The translations under genes were made by a program, and so were the position numbers. Shown piece by piece: positions 1-22,043 of a stretch of DNA of 28,245 nt. The stretch is from UHGV virus genome UHGV-0133447. One strand, 5' to 3'. Position 1 is the stretch's first letter; every line of letters starts with the position of its first letter. The stretch comes from a virus. The notes beneath the pieces are model-generated. The model saw nothing but the letters and a program-made list of their open reading frames with translations. It was not told where the DNA came from and did not search any database.

Positions 1-205
1 AAGTCGCGATGGTTTCGGATAACAGCCTTACACATGACCACACTGCCGATAACTGCAGGGCTTTATCAACCGTAACGGATTTGCCTGCTGCGGACTGCCC
101 ACCAGCATAAGCAGCCCATAATTCACCGTCGGTAAGTGAGATGGGTACGCCGAGCCACCGGCGAACGGCGCTTTTTATCCGGCCTGGCTTCTTCTCTTTA
201 TTCAT
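1..205 (-). CDS. phage portal protein (HK97-family-like), N-terminal fragment; gene continues past window start
   Basis: Minus-strand ATG at 203-205, just downstream of the TerL stop (212-214), open to position 1. Translation MNKEKKPGRIKSAVRRWLGVPISLTDGELWAAYAGGQSAAGKSVTVDKALQLSAVWSCVRLLSETIAT resembles portal N-termini (memory). Position after terminase fits head-module synteny. Absent from the ORF track because truncated. Confidence 0.7.
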   Translation of the reverse strand, partial: MNKEKKPGRIKSAVRRWLGVPISLTDGELWAAYAGGQSAAGKSVTVDKALQLSAVWSCVRLLSETIAT

Positions 206-211
206 GGTGAC

Positions 212-1948
212 TCACACAATGATGGGATTACTGAAAAAGTCGTCGATATCGCCAGAATCATCCTCATAGCCTTCGGAGGCACCGATTGCCATAGCGCCCG
301 CTACAATGCCGTCGATACGCCCGGTACTTTTTTTCTTGGCAAAAATTCGGTTTTCTTTCTGATCAGCCTCCGTCACTGCTGAAGCCGCATTCCAGCGAAG
401 ACAAGGGTTCGTCCTGATGATAATGACACTGTCATCAAGCAACTCTTCAAACAATTCGATGGAGTGAGGCATCCACAGCCCGGAATCTTTCGCTTTGTAA
501 TACCCTTGCCCATGAGGGATTAACGGAACAGAAACAGATGCTTCCTCAAGCTCCGGCTCAAGATATTTAATGCGATACTGGTCGAAGGCGATGGCCTTGA
601 TATCAAACTTCTGAGTCAGATCTGCAATGCGCTGGGCAACAAAGCCGTATTTCACTGCTTTGCCAGGTGTGGTGTGGATGTGACCATCTCGCTCCCAGGC
701 GTCATAAGGTACCCGGTCCGTTTTGGCCCGTTCCAGTAACGTATCTTTCGGGGTCCAGAACTCCACCAGCAACTTACGTTGTTTTGGAAAAAACAACGCC
801 AGTGCCGTCAAATCACGCGATCCGGACAGGTCTAAACCGCCATAGCATTCCTCACCTTCCAGTTCATCTGGATCAAAGCTCTCCTCACAACCCATCCAGA
901 CATCACTGCTCATCCACGGATTAGCCGCGTCAACCCACTGACAGAAGTTAAGACGTCTGACGATGCTCTCTTTCGATGGCATCCCGCGGGCCTGAGTCAC
1001 CTGCTCACGAAGATAGCTTTCTTCAAAGGTGTGACCCAGCGAAGGGTTAGCTTTCTTCCAGCAGGACTCATCCTTGAAAGGATCGTCTCCTTCATCCAGA
1101 GAACAAATGAAGGCAAAAAAGCTGTCATCTTCTATCGAACCGGCAGAAACCTTTCGGCCGTATTCGTGATAGTCATAGCAGACACTCGTTTTATCGTGCC
1201 CACTGTTGGTGATCATGAAAATCAGCGCCTGCCGACGACCTTTGGTACCGGCACGCATCATTTCAACAACCTGATTGCTTTTATGCTCGTGAACTTCATC
1301 AATAAGAGCACAATGCGGTCGCGGGCCGGACTGCCCGTCATCTGAACTGATTGGACGAAAGAAGGAACCAGACTGAAGAAAAGCCAGGTTCCATTCCTTC
1401 CCGGCACCACCTGATTTCTGAATACGTGCGGAAAGAGCTGGAGACTGATCGACCATCGCCACCGCATCACGGAAAAGGACCATTGCCTGGTCTTTCTTCG
1501 TGGCAGCGGCATAAACTTCAGCGCGTGCTTCTTTATCCGCAGTGAGACAGTAAAGCCCTATACCCGCAGACAGAGGGGATTTACCGGATCCCTTCCCGGA
1601 CTCCACATAGACCATTCGGAACCGGCGAAAACCTCTGGCGTTTTTCCAGCCAAAAATCGAACCGACGATGAAGCACTGCCATGGCAGCAACACGAAAGGC
1701 TCGCCTTCGAAATCACCACCATTGAGCTTCAGAACTTTCGCAAAATAGTCAATCGAGCGTTGCGCCGCCTCAACATCCCAGTGCAGACCACGGGCATGAC
1801 ATGACTGCAGATCGTTGAGGTGGCGCTGGCATGAGTTACGTATGTCAGGACCAGCCAGTTCTTTGCCCGAGGTTACATCCATCGCATATTGGGTTGCTGG
1901 ATCAACCGAAGAACTTATCGAGCGTGTCCTCTTCGGGGTCTTCGCCAT
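212..1948 (-). CDS. terminase large subunit (HK97-like)
   Basis: 578-aa ORF with Walker-A-like GKGSGKS and ATPase/nuclease-sized architecture. GGTGA Shine-Dalgarno 8 nt upstream of the ATG. Sits between the small terminase and portal genes. Confidence 0.9.
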   Translation of the reverse strand: MAKTPKRTRSISSSVDPATQYAMDVTSGKELAGPDIRNSCQRHLNDLQSCHARGLHWDVEAAQRSIDYFAKVLKLNGGDFEGEPFVLLPWQCFIVGSIFGWKNARGFRRFRMVYVESGKGSGKSPLSAGIGLYCLTADKEARAEVYAAATKKDQAMVLFRDAVAMVDQSPALSARIQKSGGAGKEWNLAFLQSGSFFRPISSDDGQSGPRPHCALIDEVHEHKSNQVVEMMRAGTKGRRQALIFMITNSGHDKTSVCYDYHEYGRKVSAGSIEDDSFFAFICSLDEGDDPFKDESCWKKANPSLGHTFEESYLREQVTQARGMPSKESIVRRLNFCQWVDAANPWMSSDVWMGCEESFDPDELEGEECYGGLDLSGSRDLTALALFFPKQRKLLVEFWTPKDTLLERAKTDRVPYDAWERDGHIHTTPGKAVKYGFVAQRIADLTQKFDIKAIAFDQYRIKYLEPELEEASVSVPLIPHGQGYYKAKDSGLWMPHSIELFEELLDDSVIIIRTNPCLRWNAASAVTEADQKENRIFAKKKSTGRIDGIVAGAMAIGASEGYEDDSGDIDDFFSNPIIV

Positions 1949-2366
1949 TCACTTTCACCTTCGTCCTTGCCGCTGGCGTCAGACCGAATTCAACCAGGTA
2001 ACTTTTAAAACGGCGGTCGGCATCGGCCAGCATCGAAACGGCCGGGTTAGCTTTGATAAGAAAACCACCCTCGGTCTGGACGGTATAGGTTCTTCCCTCT
2101 ACTGCGATAGTGTCGCGCAACTGAAGAATATCAGCGTAAATATCGCATAGCCGTTCAAGGGCTAAGGTGTCGGCAACCGTTAAAACCCCCATCCCGTCAA
2201 GGAGAACAGTCAACCTTCCCCAGGCGACCTTTCCCCAGTCGGTCAGGTGCGCCGGCGGGCTTGGAATTTCTCGCGCCGGAGTCGGTTCTTTATCGTTGAG
2301 TTTACGTTTGCCCGGGTTGCCGGAGACCACTTTGAGGTGGGTCGGTTTCGGGCGTCGTCCTGCCAT
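1902..2366 (-). CDS. terminase small subunit (P27-family-like)
   Basis: 154-aa ORF directly upstream of TerL with a 47-nt overlap. GGGAGG RBS upstream of the ATG. N-terminal basic region and LTPAARTKV-type C-terminus typical of P27-type TerS (memory). Confidence 0.8.
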   Translation of the reverse strand: MAGRRPKPTHLKVVSGNPGKRKLNDKEPTPAREIPSPPAHLTDWGKVAWGRLTVLLDGMGVLTVADTLALERLCDIYADILQLRDTIAVEGRTYTVQTEGGFLIKANPAVSMLADADRRFKSYLVEFGLTPAARTKVKVNGEDPEEDTLDKFFG

Positions 2367-3392: not shown

Positions 3393-3527
3393 GCTTCTTC
3401 TCCTGCTTCTGGTAATAAAAAGCCCCGCTATTGCGAGGCATCACGATTAAAGGCTTCTACAGGGTGGCGGACAACATTTCTCCTCTATACTGTTAAATCG
3501 TCGAACTCAACAGAACAGGTAGAAAAT

Positions 3528-4133: not shown

Positions 4134-4329
4134 CGCTGGCCCCTTTCGTGGCTTCTGCTTTACGTTCTGCCGCGGCGACGCTGGCGGCCGCCTTCTCTTC
4201 GGTGCGCTGCCGGCTGGCTTTCGCTTCTGCTTTACTGGTGCCTCGCGCATGGCCAATGCCGAACGCGCCAGCAATAGCGCCCAGAATGACAACCACCAGC
4301 CCCGCGATAGCTTCTATTCCCATGATCAT
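4048..4329 (-). CDS. putative inner-membrane spanin (Rz-like)
   Basis: 93 aa with N-terminal transmembrane segment (IAGLVVVILGAIAGAFGI) then a charged Ala/Glu/Lys-rich helical region. Start overlaps the endolysin stop (ATGA). The following lipoprotein ORF overlaps its 3' end. Confidence 0.45.
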   Translation of the reverse strand: MIMGIEAIAGLVVVILGAIAGAFGIGHARGTSKAEAKASRQRTEEKAAASVAAAERKAEATKGASDVEESVKRMGDDDVDRELREKFTRPGGG

Positions 4330-4955
4330 CCCACCAGTACCGATTTTGCTTTCAGGAATCGGGCGCGTCGGTCATCAATGCCGTTCTGCCCGCCGTTGAT
4401 AATCTGGGTCACGCGCACTAAATCTCCGTGGTATTTCAAACATCCGTTTGAGGTGTAAAACCAGGCTGCGCTGCGGGCCGCATTAATATATTTCTCCAAC
4501 AACTCAGGGTTGCTGACTAAATCCAGTTTCAGTGCATTACCGCACTTCATATAATTTTCGAGGAAGGTGATCCCGATAATTCCACGCCCGCGGTATTTCC
4601 AGCCATCGCCCGCAGCCTTATTGCCAAAACGATTGTTGTAGACGAGATTAGCGATCGCTCGTTGACGTTCGATCGGTAAAACCTTTTCGTAAGTTTTACG
4701 CCCCAGGGTGTTCGCCTGGTCCTGCGTGATGCGCTTTGCCTTCACAAAACCAGCCAGGCCGGCAACGCTATAGTTAAAACTTTCGACCATCTGGGTAAAT
4801 GACGTGCTTTCGTGTCCACACTGCGCTATGAACATCGCCTGATCGAGTGGAGCTGTAATGCCGAATTCTTTCATCGCAGCATCAATATGCGGAAACCAGC
4901 GCGCAGCTAACCCGGCGCTGATACCAGCCGCCCTTTGAAATTGTGATTGGTTCAT
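4326..4955 (-). CDS. endolysin, glycoside hydrolase family 19 (chitinase-like lysozyme)
   Basis: 209 aa with FIAQCGHESTSF-type motif and overall GH19 endolysin pattern (memory). Flanked by holin-like and spanin-like genes. Confidence 0.85.
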   Translation of the reverse strand: MNQSQFQRAAGISAGLAARWFPHIDAAMKEFGITAPLDQAMFIAQCGHESTSFTQMVESFNYSVAGLAGFVKAKRITQDQANTLGRKTYEKVLPIERQRAIANLVYNNRFGNKAAGDGWKYRGRGIIGITFLENYMKCGNALKLDLVSNPELLEKYINAARSAAWFYTSNGCLKYHGDLVRVTQIINGGQNGIDDRRARFLKAKSVLVG

Positions 4956-5233
4956 CAGTGCCTCAGTGCATCAACCAGTCGCGCCACATTCCCCCTGAAC
5001 CAGAGAACCGCGCCGCAGATAAGAATGTTAGCCAGCACCACCAGCCAGTGGGATGACTCGTACAGGCCAAACAGGAAACGGAAAGGGATGCTGGCATAAA
5101 CCAGCACCATGAGATAAGCCAGAACGGATATGCCCGGACGGTGTCTCGCACTACCTCGTTGGTAGAACATCAATGCCAGCACAATGACGGCGCAAATGAC
5201 TGCATTGGCCAGCGCTGAAGGATCATTTACCAC
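4955..5233 (-). CDS. holin-like small membrane protein
   Basis: 92 aa with three predicted hydrophobic segments and a basic C-terminus. Immediately upstream of the endolysin with a 1-nt start/stop overlap. Confidence 0.55.
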   Translation of the reverse strand: MVNDPSALANAVICAVIVLALMFYQRGSARHRPGISVLAYLMVLVYASIPFRFLFGLYESSHWLVVLANILICGAVLWFRGNVARLVDALRH

Positions 5234-5612
5234 TTGAACCTCCTCCCCGGAACCGGGTCAGCATATTGAACAAGCTATTTAGATCCTGGCTGTTGAGAAA
5301 CGTCAGAACTTTGATGATAAGCGCTGATATTAATACGGCTCCCAACGCATCAAGCGGACGGTCGCTGTAGCCAGTCCAGCTTGAAAGCTTGGAACCCACC
5401 AGACCGGCGCCCAGAACACCAACAATGAATGACGTCATAAAGTATGCCACCAGCTTACCGCGCGATATGTTAGCTGCCGTGGCCACGTAAAAAACCGCCC
5501 CGGCGAACGCACCAAATACCACGCCGTAATCTATTCCGGTAGCCAGACCGAACATGCTAGCCCCCATCAGGCCGCCGGCCGCAACTGAAGTACCAGAGAC
5601 AGGATCGGACAT
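5223..5612 (-). CDS. holin-like membrane protein (possible holin/antiholin partner)
   Basis: 129 aa, Gly/Ala-rich hydrophobic segments, GAGGGGG RBS. First gene of the lysis cassette. Confidence 0.55.
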   Translation of the reverse strand: MSDPVSGTSVAAGGLMGASMFGLATGIDYGVVFGAFAGAVFYVATAANISRGKLVAYFMTSFIVGVLGAGLVGSKLSSWTGYSDRPLDALGAVLISALIIKVLTFLNSQDLNSLFNMLTRFRGGGSSGK

Positions 5613-6330: not shown

Positions 6331-6358
6331 AAATAAAAAAGCCATGCAAATGCATGGC
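6331..6358 (-). terminator. intrinsic terminator-like hairpin (minus strand)
   Basis: Perfect palindrome gccatgca-aa-tgcatggc (6341-6358). On the minus strand it is followed by TTTTTTATTT (complement of 6331-6340). Confidence 0.5.
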
Positions 6359-6462
6359 CTTGTGGTTTGAATCCGTTATTTACAAAATGTATTCGAGACA
6401 GTATCTTTCGACTTCCGGACAAAAAAACATATACCGGGACAAAATCTAAATGTAACTGCCTT

Positions 6463-6493: not shown

Positions 6494-6496
6494 GGC

Positions 6497-6522
6497 CAAA
6501 GAAAAAGCCCACCGAAGTGGGC
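6497..6522 (-). terminator. intrinsic terminator (minus strand) with UUCG-type tetraloop
   Basis: Minus-strand reading ggcccac-ttcg-gtgggc followed by TTTTCTTTGG. Lies downstream of the TerB-like gene. Confidence 0.5.
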
Positions 6523-6896
6523 CTTACAGCTATCATCATTTTTTATTAGGTGTGGTGCCGGGTGCCTCCCGGTAAGTCGCCGCCAGTCCACAGACGACTC
6601 GCAATGCGCAAAAAAACATATCAGACTGGCAATGCCCCTCCGCATAGGGGGATTCACCACACGGATAATTTAGGATGTAGTCATAGGCGGCGTCAATAAC
6701 TGACACTCTGTCAAAGGCATCATTACGATGCCTTTTGCACAGTGCTAATCACTGGATCTAATAAGGGGCCAGAGCAAAGCGATTACCCCGGCTACCAGCA
6801 CGCCATCAGCCAGGATTGACATCATTTTGCTGGTGAAGTCGATAGCAACCACCAGAAACAAAAGCACCCCGGCTGCGGCCCAGCGAAGTTTACCGA

Positions 6897-7954: not shown

Positions 7955-8008
7955 GCCTACTCCTGGTATGGGTCCTGTGCTTAAATAACGCCGAGCGTGG
8001 CGCAGATA

Positions 8009-8033
8009 CGAAAAAGGCCCGCGAATGCGAGCC
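8009..8033 (-). terminator. intrinsic terminator-like hairpin (minus strand) upstream of the HNH-AP2 gene
   Basis: Minus-strand reading ggctcgc-attc-gcgggcc (7-bp stem, one G-U pair) followed by TTTTTCG. Confidence 0.45.
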
Positions 8034-8246
8034 TGATGGATCCGCTTACTGATACGGAGCGACCAACCTAAGTTGTCGCAGATTCAAATTGTGGCCCTGC
8101 CTTTAAGTCACTTTGCGCGCAGCTGGGACATGTAGTTTTCGCATCGTGATCGGGATTCGCTTCAGACGCTGGCCCCGCAGCCATTTAAGTGCCGGTTACG
8201 TTTATCCGGCGGCTTTCGCCCGGTTAAGCCCTAAGGTAAGGGATTT

Positions 8247-8393
8247 GGTTGTGACACCAGGCCGTTACGCCTGCTTACTTCCTGCCGCTCTGTTTTGGTA
8301 TTGGCCGCCAGTAACTGCGACTCAGCCGATTTACAGGTCTTTGCGTCGGCCGGCGCTGCAGCCCACTTGAGCACATCACAACGGAAAGAGCGC
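8247..8393 (-). ncRNA. candidate structured tRNA-like element, copy A (degenerate)
   Basis: Minus-strand leader gcgctctttccgttgtgat resembles the leaders at 21901 and 22159. gttgtga can pair with tcacaac about 130 nt downstream to close the element. Contains gcgccggccgacg internal motif. Region 8036-8505 has no credible ORF. Confidence 0.3.
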
Positions 8394-8505
8394 TTAGTGC
8401 ATTTAAGCCAAACCCCATGTAGGAAGCACTCTTACCTGTTGTGCGCTCCGTTTCGTGGAGCAGACGCCGCCGGAATCGCACCGGCAGAATCATCACATTG
8501 GTATA

Positions 8506-8581
8506 TGGTGCTGGTTGACGGAATCGAACCGCCGACATCCTGCTTACAAGGCAGGCGCTCTACCAGCTGAGCTAAACCAGC
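8506..8581 (-). tRNA. tRNA-Thr (anticodon UGU), phage-encoded
   Basis: Minus-strand 76-nt cloverleaf GCTGGTT-TA-GCTC-AGCTGGTA-GAGC-G-CCTGC-CTTGTAA-GCAGG-ATGTC-GGCGG-TTCGATT-CCGTC-AACCAGC-A-CCA. Acceptor 7 bp, D-loop GG, anticodon loop with U33 and A37, canonical T-loop, encoded CCA. Confidence 0.8.
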
Positions 8582-9621
8582 AAATTACGCATTTCACTGA
8601 CCGTCTGTTCAAATCTCTCGGTTTCCAGTTCGACACCTAGTCCCCTTCGCCCGAGAAGAGCAGCCTGCTTGAGCGTTGAGCCTGATCCAAAAAAGAAATC
8701 AGCTACAACATCACCCGGGCGGCTACTCGCTGTGATTATCTGCTCCAGCATATCCGCAGGCTTTTCACATGGGTGTTTACCTGGATAAAACTGAACAGGC
8801 TTATGAGTCCAGACGTCGGTATATGGCACCGTGACCGATACGCTGAATGGTCGCCGTAAACGGTAATATTCCTGCTGGAGTTCAGAATATTTTCGGCTTA
8901 ACGATTGCCAGGTGCCGACAAGCTGGTGGTGAGGTTTTCCCAGTTCGTTGCGTGAGTGCTTATCCATGGCGATTGTTTGAAACAAAGCCTGCAACTTTAA
9001 ATAATCGGCTTCGTTCGGTAGCTGCCACTGACTAAGGCCAAACCAGTGGGAAACCATATTTTTCTTACCTGTGGCTTCTGCAATCTGAGCCGACGTCACG
9101 CCAAGAGATTCCCGTGCATCACGGAAGTAAGAAATTAAAGGCGTCATGACGTGTTGCTTTAACTCATTACACTTTGCGGCATATCCATCGTCTTTGGGCC
9201 TGTATGGCCCCTGATAATGGTCGGCAAAAATGATACGCTCAGTGGCCGGGAAATAAGCGCGTAAGCTCTCCTTATTGCAGCCGTTCCATCGCCCTGATGG
9301 CTTAGCCCAGATGATATGGTTGAGCAGGTTAAACCGCTCTCTCACCAACAGCTCAATATCCGCTGCCAGGCGGTGCCCACAGAACAGATACATGCTGCCG
9401 GCAGGTTTTAACACTCGCCAGAACTGTGCCAGACAGCTATCCAGCCAACGTAAATAGTCTTCGTCCCCCTTCCATTGGTTATCCCAGCCGTTTGGCTTCA
9501 CCTTAAAATAAGGCGGATCGGTAACAATAAGATCAATGGAGTTATCGGGTAGCGATGGGAGGTATTGCAGGCAATCAGCATTGATTAACTCAATACTGGA
9601 TATTTTTACAGTATTTTTCAT
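8572..9621 (-). CDS. orphan DNA methyltransferase, N6-adenine/N4-cytosine (beta) class
   Basis: 349 aa with TDPPYF catalytic motif near the N-terminus. No adjacent restriction endonuclease. The ORF's last codons overlap the 5' end of the tRNA. Confidence 0.85.
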   Translation of the reverse strand: MKNTVKISSIELINADCLQYLPSLPDNSIDLIVTDPPYFKVKPNGWDNQWKGDEDYLRWLDSCLAQFWRVLKPAGSMYLFCGHRLAADIELLVRERFNLLNHIIWAKPSGRWNGCNKESLRAYFPATERIIFADHYQGPYRPKDDGYAAKCNELKQHVMTPLISYFRDARESLGVTSAQIAEATGKKNMVSHWFGLSQWQLPNEADYLKLQALFQTIAMDKHSRNELGKPHHQLVGTWQSLSRKYSELQQEYYRLRRPFSVSVTVPYTDVWTHKPVQFYPGKHPCEKPADMLEQIITASSRPGDVVADFFFGSGSTLKQAALLGRRGLGVELETERFEQTVSEMRNLLV

Positions 9622-9770
9622 AGATCAGTAAGCGTAACTCTGATAGGCTCACTTTGCTTTTGCGCTAAAGCAGTGGGCCGTGGTTAGCTTGTGACCTGAA
9701 AGCATGAGCTGATGGCTGGCCGGGTGCTACAACACCCACCAGCCGCCCATTTTCACAGCAAAAGCCCCCA

Positions 9771-9992
9771 TTACTGGAGGCGCTTATAACATCCGAACTG
9801 ATAATCAGATAACCCCGCCATTACCAGCTGCGTAAGTATGAGCTGGCAGCGTTCGCGGCTCAGGTGAGTATTCTGAGCAATCTCCCCAGCCGTAGCCGGT
9901 TTGTCACTTAACTCATCAAAAACAGCCTTGGCTGTTTCCGTCATATCTTGCTGATTTAGCATGTCTTTTATCTCAAATAAGTGGTGTGACAT
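9771..9992 (-). CDS. small winged-helix-like DNA-binding protein (hypothetical; PapI/FaeA-like fold only suspected)
   Basis: 73 aa from the ATG (MSHHLFEIK...); the track's longer ORF starts at a TTG. Segment ATAGEIAQNTHLSRERCQLILTQLVMAGL has an HTH-like pattern. First ORF downstream of the late promoter/terminator. Confidence 0.35.
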   Translation of the reverse strand: MSHHLFEIKDMLNQQDMTETAKAVFDELSDKPATAGEIAQNTHLSRERCQLILTQLVMAGLSDYQFGCYKRLQ

Positions 9993-10063
9993 ACAGATAA
10001 CTCTGGTGACGGTATCCAGCAAGAACTAATTGAAAGAGAAGAAGATTTTATCGATTTTATCCC

Positions 10064-10089
10064 ATAAAAAAACCCGCTCGCTGGCGGGT
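10064..10089 (-). terminator. intrinsic terminator just downstream of the putative late promoter (tR'-like)
   Basis: Minus-strand reading acccgc-cagcga-gcgggt followed by seven T (complement of 10066-10072). Confidence 0.5.
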
Positions 10090-10127
10090 TAATCAACGTT
10101 GAACATACAAAGCCCATCGTTATAAAT

Positions 10128-10156
10128 AAAATTACACAAAAGCGGCAACTTTGCAA
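10128..10156 (-). promoter_or_regulatory. candidate late promoter (PR'-like) immediately downstream of Q
   Basis: Minus-strand TTGCAA (10151-10156), 17-nt spacer, TAATTT (10128-10133). About 40-60 nt upstream of the terminator at 10064-10089, analogous to the lambda PR'-tR' arrangement. Confidence 0.35.
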
Positions 10157-10172
10157 GTAACGTGTCGCTAAA

Positions 10173-11003
10173 TTATGCGATATTTATCAAATCAGGCACC
10201 TTTGTCACACGTTTAAGCTGTGAGTCGGTATAACTCTCTTCCTCAAAGCATCTTGTAACCAGACTTTCATAGAAAGGTTTCCAGCTATATCGCCAGGTAC
10301 GTTCTGGCAGACCAGGCAGCTCAGAGAGCATACCCCTGTATGCATTCGAAGACTTAGGACGACTATAACCGCGGCCTTCACAACGTTTACACACTTTGTA
10401 GACAGGCACTCCCTGCAGCTCTGACTCTTTACGGTCCAGGGTTTTTCCCGTACCGCCACACTGGCATCGCTTGCTGATTTTCCCGGTGCCGCCACATTTG
10501 AAGCAAAGAACATGGTCAACCTCTTCCACCTGACGTTTTACTTCAAAATCCGAAGGTGACTGCCTGAGGTCTTTTGCCCATTGCGGTAATCTCATTGTGT
10601 AGTGGCTTTTTTCCACCATTGAGGTTTTTTTTATGAAGCCTGAACCAGAACACTTCCTGCAATCTACGCTGTCAGCTGCAGACGAGGCATAGTCGTTATA
10701 AGCGAACCGAGCTATTATCAGCATACACAGCGGGAACTTCTTCCCTGCTGCTTTTCTTATCGATCGAGGCGCTTTTGATTTTGCATATTCAGCCAACCAA
10801 CTGACGGATGCCTTTCTGTCGTGTTCGCTGATTCCAGCTTTACCCAAAAACATTGACAGGCCTATTCCTGCCTCTGCCTGTGTCATCCCCAGAGCCGCCA
10901 TTACATCTGTCACAGTAAGTTGCTCGCTGGCGGTTGCAAGACCGCTATCGGAAATATGCATTCCTTTGGGCGCAAAAAATTTGGGAATTGATTCAATATT
11001 CAT
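10173..11003 (-). CDS. late-gene antitermination protein Q-like (Cys-rich, zinc-binding type)
   Basis: Repeated Cys pairs CRKCSGSG / CFKCGGTGK / CQCGGTGK / CKRCEGRG. Position directly upstream of promoter plus terminator and adjacent to DUF968 resembles Qin-type Q (memory). ATG at 11003 has a GGAG RBS; the track's GTG at 11021 is an alternative start. Confidence 0.65.
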   Translation of the reverse strand: MNIESIPKFFAPKGMHISDSGLATASEQLTVTDVMAALGMTQAEAGIGLSMFLGKAGISEHDRKASVSWLAEYAKSKAPRSIRKAAGKKFPLCMLIIARFAYNDYASSAADSVDCRKCSGSGFIKKTSMVEKSHYTMRLPQWAKDLRQSPSDFEVKRQVEEVDHVLCFKCGGTGKISKRCQCGGTGKTLDRKESELQGVPVYKVCKRCEGRGYSRPKSSNAYRGMLSELPGLPERTWRYSWKPFYESLVTRCFEEESYTDSQLKRVTKVPDLINIA

Positions 11004-21900: not shown

Positions 21901-22043
21901 GGCAGTGCTCTTACCGTTGTGGTGTAGCTCAAATGGATAGAGCGCCCCTTATGTGGGGAGTTGAGCACTAACCAATGTTCGCAACACAGGTTATCTCATG
22001 CGGCCGGCCGGACGTTATGCGGGTTCAAATCCCGTCACCACAG
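21901..22043 (+). ncRNA. candidate tRNA-like structured element, copy B1
   Basis: Leader ggcagtgctcttaccgttgtggt. TGTGGTG (21918-21924) pairs with CACCACA (22036-22042). D-arm-like GCTC-AAATGGATA-GAGC. T-arm-like GCGGG-TTCAAAT-CCCGT (22019-22035). About 60 extra nt between the anticodon-like region and the T-arm. No encoded CCA. Confidence 0.3.

Follow-up and report, generated by a model that had tools for sequence, protein, structure and literature searches.

A putative promoter, a pause element and a terminator packed behind a Q gene probably form a lambda/P22-type late cassette in a lambdoid Klebsiella-type prophage

We analysed a 28,245-nt stretch of the virus genome UHGV-0133447 (hereafter the window), on the minus strand of which a gene for a Q antiterminator is followed, 3' of its stop codon, by a compact block that contains a putative promoter, a pause element and an intrinsic terminator, all inside 10064-10172 (Table 1). 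Further downstream on the same strand lie a small winged helix-turn-helix (wHTH) ORF, a DNA methylase gene, tRNA-Thr(UGU), an HNH/AP2 gene followed by a TerB-like gene 3' of the tRNA gene, and the holin, endolysin and terminase genes. The original prediction had described a promoter and terminator pair right after Q, and every element that it listed was found there, on the minus strand.

Table 1. Features of the Q gene, the block behind it and the late region of the window
Feature	Position	Strand	Basis or remark
Q antiterminator gene	10173..11003	(-)	276 aa from ATG at 11003; Pfam PF03589 Antiterm
Q stop TAA	10175-10173	(-)	
Conserved 16-nt block TTTAGCGACACGTTAC, Q stop to -35	10157..10172	(-)	column conservation in relatives
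-35 hexamer TTGCAA	10156-10151	(-)	4/6 vs TTGACA; starts 16 nt after Q stop
16-nt spacer AGTTGCCGCTTTTGTG, putative Q-binding element (QBE)	10135..10150	(-)	inferred
-10 hexamer TAATTT	10134-10129	(-)	3/6 consensus; includes A2 and T6
Sigma70-dependent pause element AACGATGGG (-10-like AACGAT + GGG)	10121-10113	(-)	identity to lambda PR'
TNYG pause motif TATG, +15..+18	10104..10107	(-)	match to the T-N-Y-G consensus
CGTT, 3' arm of predicted 5'-terminal RNA hairpin, +24..+27	10095..10098	(-)	RNAfold, RNAalifold, covariation
Intrinsic terminator (tR'-like)	10066..10090	(-)	terminator scan; stem AACCCGC/GCGGGTT, loop CAGCGA, T7
Predicted terminated leader RNA, ~53-56 nt	10066..10121	(-)	from predicted start + terminator
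Small wHTH ORF	9771-9992	(-)	
DNA methylase	8572-9621	(-)	
tRNA-Thr(UGU)	8506-8581	(-)	
Rfam STnc100	6494-6691	(-)	100.7 bits
Holins	5223-5612 and 4955-5233	(-)	
Glycoside hydrolase 19 endolysin	4326-4955	(-)	
TerS/TerL	212-2366	(-)	
Five more terminator-like hairpins + T-runs	9764-9781, 8015-8034, 6504-6525, 6338-6361, 3422-3439	(-)	

The ORF list starts the Q reading frame at a GTG (11021), 5' of the ATG from which we count the protein. Its product matched the Pfam family PF03589, 'Antitermination protein Q', with an E value of 3.5e-45 and 152.5 bits, the cut-off being 26.7; lambda Q is assigned to this family too, and a full-length BLASTP alignment of the two proteins gave 31% identity (E 3e-38), with an insertion of ~75 aa in the window Q. 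Q proteins fall into the families Q-lambda (PF03589), Q21 (PF06530) and Q82 (PF06323) (PMC9388147). In Pfam, PF03589 was the only antiterminator family matched by the window Q, and PF06323 was not matched. Because the window Q lies outside the 82 family, the comparison with phage 82 that had been proposed for this site is less relevant; the site is lambda/P22-like. We also noticed that the window Q carries four CXXCXGXG-like motifs (CRKCSGSG, CFKCGGTG, CQCGGTG and CKRCEGRG; the 'long form') in place of the two found in lambda and P22 Q, with the extra pair inside the ~75-aa insertion. The four motifs suggest a second zinc site in the window Q. The long form is common, and is present in SfV, Stx2c phages, SPN3UB, YeP3 and many Enterobacterales prophages.

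The Q stop is separated from the -35 hexamer by 16 nt, TTTAGCGACACGTTAC, most columns of which are 90-100% conserved among 66 distinct relatives, with a few variable; they could be the upstream portion of the promoter or of the Q site. TTGCAA is unchanged in all clade-A relatives. The promoter-like hexamers had been named correctly as TTGCAA and TAATTT, but the spacer, given as 17 nt, is 16 nt long and reaches 17 only if the -10 element is read as AATTTT. A generic sigma70 scan made no call at TTGCAA-16-TAATTT, the score being under the threshold, because the -10 hexamer matches the consensus at only 3 of 6 positions. The promoter assignment therefore rests on homology and conservation: the hexamers (4/6 and 3/6 consensus) are conserved and occupy a position equivalent to PR' of lambda and P22. 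In lambda the QBE is located between the -35 and -10 elements, and the corresponding spacer of the window, AGTTGCCGCTTTTGTG, is a putative QBE.

TAATTT is separated by TATTTAT from the most diagnostic element of the site, AACGATGGG, which the original prediction lacked. This sequence is identical to +1..+9 of lambda PR', stands 29 nt from the -35 hexamer in both, and occurs as a single exact copy within the window. In lambda, region 2 of sigma70 rebinds AACGAT in the early transcribed region and thereby holds polymerase at +16/+17, and DNA-bound Q loads onto the paused complex (PMC4005639, PMC9388147, bioRxiv 10.1101/2022.01.24.477500); the lambda QBE adjoins the pause element (PMC9388147). 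By analogy, transcription in the window is predicted to start at the first A of AACGATGGG, at 10121 +/-1. Downstream, TATG at +15..+18 matches T-N-Y-G, the consensus for a scrunched paused state, for which lambda has TTCG at +14..+17 (bioRxiv 10.1101/2022.01.24.477500), and a pause is predicted with the RNA 3' end at +17. The -35-like element beside the pause element is degenerate in the window (TTTATT vs TTGACT in lambda), a difference that might make the sigma region 4 / Q step less effective than in lambda.

The stretch CTTTGTATGTTCAACGTTGATT leads from AACGATGGG to the terminator hairpin, in which AACCCGC (10090-10084) pairs with GCGGGTT (10077-10071) around a 6-nt loop, and the last two T of the hairpin open a T7 run (10072-10066). 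The hairpin and the T7 run agree with the intrinsic terminator described earlier, but its stem comprises 7 bp with five G-C pairs (dG -10.6 kcal/mol) and not 6 bp of G-C. As the terminator spans +32..+56, the terminated RNA is predicted to be ~53-56 nt long.

Conservation of the block was followed in 80 viral contigs whose Q shares 75-99% identity with the window Q. Of 69 distinct downstream sequences, the window among them, 66 keep the block, with near-complete conservation between the Q stop and the last T of the T-run, past which similarity collapses. Where Q is 70-85% identical, the block shares 82% of its nucleotides with the window, the Q coding sequence 73% and the following 150 nt 37%, so that the 107-nt block is better conserved than the coding sequence of Q itself. 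In most relatives the -10 hexamer is TAAATT, as in lambda, and TAATTT is found in the window's own subgroup; likewise, most relatives have TTGACG or TTGACA 2 nt before AACGAT (in relatives at 75-79%), and the window's own subgroup has TTTATT. The terminator stem is conserved and its loop variable, with compensatory changes at 3 pairs (RNAalifold, 24 distinct leaders); some relatives carry a different terminator at the equivalent place. A few nt past the T-run (10066) we noticed a tandem direct repeat, ATAAAATCG then ATAAAATCT (10043-10060, minus strand), which the closest relatives share (CTAAAATCGATAAAATCT) but more distant ones lack.

Terminator-like matches are common, with 39 in 20 kb vs 20.7 expected. 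The composite TTGNNN-15..18-TANNNT-5..8-AACGAT is found once in the window, at the site downstream of Q, and anywhere on either strand in ~5% of Markov-resampled windows, a figure that takes no account of conservation or of the Q stop and the terminator, which lie 16 nt before and 31 nt after the composite. AACGATGGG is what raises the site above chance. An alternative is that the hairpin and T7 merely end the early or Q transcript, that the hexamers and AACGATGGG are there by chance and that there is no late promoter. A terminator just 82 nt past the Q stop, the frequency of terminator-like sites in the window and the failure of the promoter in a generic consensus scan would all fit such a plain terminator, but it would leave unaccounted for a AACGATGGG identical to the lambda pause element at an equal distance from the -35 hexamer, a 107-nt block conserved above the Q coding sequence, and a layout that recurs with four divergent Q clades and in the P22 annotation. 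Because of the pause element and the conservation we regard a plain Q-gene terminator as very unlikely.

The four Q clades emerged when the first 19 transcribed nt were used as a search pattern: one leader was found behind four groups of Q with 72-100%, ~42% and, in two groups, ~35% identity to the window Q. Each group has its own -35/-10 spacer and its own -10 hexamer: the spacer core GTTGCCG(C/T)TTTTG is near-invariant where Q is 72-100% identical, and Qs that are 35-43% identical have unrelated spacers with the same leader. The spacer AGTTGCCGCTTTTGTG is thus group-specific, as expected of a putative QBE that co-evolves with Q. The part common to the four clades starts exactly at the pause element and diverges again past the T-run; a promoter/Q-site part and a leader/terminator part behave as separately exchangeable modules joined at the pause element.

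A species-level sample, with one genome per species, covered Q-lambda relatives across Enterobacterales (80 loci, 75 usable). An intrinsic terminator was found within 320 nt of the Q stop in 70 of the 75 usable loci and within 150 nt in 65, and the distance from Q stop to terminator had a median of 97 nt, compared with 82 nt in the window. In the window's class, leader lengths fall into two clusters, 54-57 nt and 63-68 nt, and lambda's 194 nt is unusual. As far as this sample goes, a compact leader of ~55-70 nt is the norm for the Q-lambda family in Enterobacterales, and the 194-nt 6S RNA of lambda the exception.

The original prediction had also proposed a small constitutive RNA. By analogy with lambda 6S RNA and StxS (PMC7547250), such an RNA is a reasonable prediction. 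The leader is predicted to fold into a 5' hairpin and the terminator hairpin (MFE -18.8 kcal/mol, z -2.8). Rfam at gathering thresholds gave no family at 10064-10172, and at E values up to 10 it gave sub-threshold matches only, for example Trp_leader (25 bits vs 41) and isrK (13.5 vs 50), which we attribute to the terminator-containing stretch. In complete E. coli genomes, megablast with the region returned no match; sensitive blastn found copies of the leader, at ~76% identity, in 377 E. coli genomes, in none of which it is annotated.

A further reading makes this short RNA the main selected product, a trans-acting and possibly Hfq-binding prophage sRNA that lysogens would produce constitutively, with the Q switch kept too. 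It would account for a leader that is ~85% identical behind Qs only 35% identical, where the promoter spacer is unalignable, and for the occurrence of a related leader in 377 of 5,426 E. coli genomes; the RNA combines a 5' hairpin with an A/U-rich linker and a U7-tailed terminator, and precedents are known in StxS and in the short PR' RNAs made by lambda, 21, phi80, 82 and P22 (PMC7547250). Yet the best-conserved segment, +1..+19, is also needed for pausing (the -10-like element, GGG and TNYG), the single-stranded linker before the terminator, which is the usual seed position, is the part most variable in sequence and length, and the leader has no Rfam family match. We consider this reading rather unlikely. 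The leader could also encode a small protein, from an ATG inside AACGATGGG (10117) through the terminator to 9968, and an open frame does exist there as part of a 62-aa ORF (9968..10156). However, this ATG lies 4 nt from the predicted 5' end with no ribosome-binding site, its frame crosses the terminator into DNA that is not conserved among the relatives, and the equivalent ATG of lambda meets a stop after two codons; such a protein is extremely improbable, and we rejected it.

In the predicted 5'-terminal hairpin of the leader (10095-10121) we observed that AACG at +1..+4, the RNA copy of the pause element, can pair with CGUU at +24..+27. Lambda and P22 have an equivalent 5' hairpin, AACGA/UCGUU. 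Across the Q-lambda family the pause hexamer takes the forms AACGAT, AATGAT, AACAAT, AATAGT, AATCGT, AATCAT, GATTAT, AATTGT and AAGGAT. In the species-level sample, a stretch near +19..+30 varies in step with the hexamer and stays complementary, partly by G-U pairs. Examples of a pause segment and its downstream complement are AACAAT with ATTGTT, AATGA with TCATT, TAGTG with CACTA, TCGTG with CACGA, AATCAT with ATGATT, GATTAT with ATAATT, and AAGGA with UUCUU (one G-U pair). Permutation across 19 pause-element classes, which are not phylogenetically independent, gave a mean own stem of 4.77 nt vs 4.07 +/- 0.16, with none of 5000 permutations reaching the observed value. An exact reverse complement of at least 4 nt was present in 16 of the 19 classes (controls: reversed 2/19, complemented 8/19, direct 4/19). 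The hairpin test as a whole is weakened because an automatic caller misplaced the pause element in some species-level loci, and twelve positions were corrected by hand. No earlier description of covariation between the pause element and a 5' hairpin was found in the papers searched. Tentatively, these patterns may reflect a double constraint on the pause element, as DNA read by sigma and as one arm of an RNA stem formed by the first ~27 nt. The stem might shield the 5' end of the late mRNA, and of the ~56-nt terminated RNA, from 5'-end-dependent decay, or else reduce backtracking after the pause, and the terminated RNA, found behind four divergent Q clades, might besides be an StxS-like sRNA; we hold this as a possibility and not as the likelier case. 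Should the covariation hold, a DNA element known from decades of work would prove to be constrained at the RNA level as well.

Downstream of the block, the wHTH gene, the DNA methylase gene and tRNA-Thr lie between the presumed Q-dependent promoter and the lysis genes, and by position they would therefore be Q-controlled. At least five more terminator-like sites on the minus strand between Q and the terminase genes (Table 1) fit an operon that needs a processive antiterminator, and the extra terminators are consistent with inserted gene cassettes that each brought a terminator and depend on processive antitermination.

Several other features of the window were recorded. The tRNA-Thr(UGU) gene sits inside what would be the Q-controlled leader region, and Yersinia phage YeP3 also has tRNA genes soon after its Q terminator. 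The ~550 nt past tRNA-Thr (7955-8581 region) contain no convincing ORF or Rfam match and end in a terminator-like hairpin (8034-8015). In a tRNA-like element at 21918-22043 on the plus strand (Rfam tRNA, 40 bits), the acceptor, D and T arms are intact; a 68-nt insertion replaces its anticodon arm, and ARAGORN made no call. STnc100, a prophage sRNA related to PasD (bioRxiv 10.64898/2026.05.13.724894), has a promoter-like TTGACG-18-TAAATT of its own (6696-6667) and its own terminator (6525-6504), and thus forms a second compact promoter/terminator pair in the late region, just upstream of the holins and downstream of the TerB-like ORF. We rejected it as a second late promoter with a Q, as the ORF upstream is TerB-like and not Q and no -10-like pause element was seen after the promoter; STnc100 is a separate prophage sRNA.

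Taken together, the site is very probably a Q-dependent late cassette of the lambda/P22 (Q-lambda) kind, belonging to a lambdoid Klebsiella-type prophage. What the sequence shows is the elements themselves, how they are spaced, how far they are conserved and to which family Q belongs. The Q-utilisation site proposed originally fits the Q family, the promoter geometry, the pause element, the P22 layout and the downstream genes, all at the level of sequence. By analogy with lambda we infer where transcription starts, that it pauses and terminates, and that Q binds the spacer and allows read-through; the steps would be as follows. Host sigma70 RNA polymerase would initiate at about 10121 on the minus strand from the weak-consensus promoter TTGCAA-16-TAATTT, and sigma region 2 would then rebind AACGAT(GGG) at +1..+9 and hold the complex at about +16/+17. 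Without Q, polymerase would escape, terminate at the hairpin and T7 (+32..+56) and release an RNA of ~56 nt. Q, when present, would bind the promoter spacer and the paused complex and make polymerase termination-resistant; the modified polymerase would read through the leader terminator and at least five more minus-strand terminators and reach the wHTH ORF and the DNA methylase, tRNA-Thr, holin, endolysin and terminase genes. Since the window Q is only 31% identical to lambda Q and has the ~75-aa insertion, the DNA site and the details of loading may differ. The prophage would use the textbook lambda/P22 late switch. For annotation, such a cassette marks the start of the late operon, and it predicts a short RNA in lysogens.

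Comparison with named systems places the site as follows. Lambda has, like the window, the order Q gene, promoter, sigma-dependent pause element, terminator and late genes, and a TTG 2 nt after the -35 hexamer in the spacer. The lambda sequence reads TTGACT-17-TAAATT-TGACTC-AACGATGGG, with a TTGACT 1 nt before the pause element, and its spacing is 17+6 nt where that of the window is 16+7 nt. The spacer (QBE) sequence of the window differs from lambda's, its leader is ~56 nt long in contrast to 194 nt, and both lambda tR' and P22 t late have stronger hairpins than its terminator (-10.6 kcal/mol). P22 has a gene 23 (Q), promoter and spacer that are nearly lambda's and a pause element AACGATGGA, whereas beyond +8 its initial transcribed sequence, like its terminator, is unrelated to the window's. 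Phages 82 and 21, whose Q proteins belong to unrelated families, have different QBE arrangements and pause positions. The P22 record NC_002371 annotates the same compact layout, with P late, a qut-like site, an RNA 5' nt and t late, which ends ~59 nt downstream of that annotated nt.

StxS of Stx1/Stx2a phages is an sRNA made from the constitutive PR' and ended at tR' in lysogens; its 258-nt transcript is cut by RNase E to 74 nt, binds Hfq and targets rpoS and stx1B (PMC7547250). Like the RNA predicted here, StxS is a by-product of Q antitermination control, but we rejected it as a homologue, as its leader is different (258 nt -> 74 nt) and no sequence relationship was seen. Among the named phages, SfV and the Stx2c-converting phages, members of one of the ~35% Q groups, are close in their leader: their pause element is identical to the window's AACGATGGG, and their leader and terminator, AACGATGGGCTTTGTATGT..CGTTGAT..AACCCGCC....GCGGGTTTTTTT, are almost the window's, whereas their spacer and -10 hexamer (TAAGAT) differ and their linker is ~9 nt longer. 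The only annotation there in the SfV record is a 'putative rho-independent terminator'. Because P22 has the same layout and the terminator follows Q this closely in most of the Enterobacterales loci (<=150 nt in 65/75), the site, previously uncharacterised, is on sequence grounds a typical example of a textbook system, and of the lambda/P22 type, not the 82 type.
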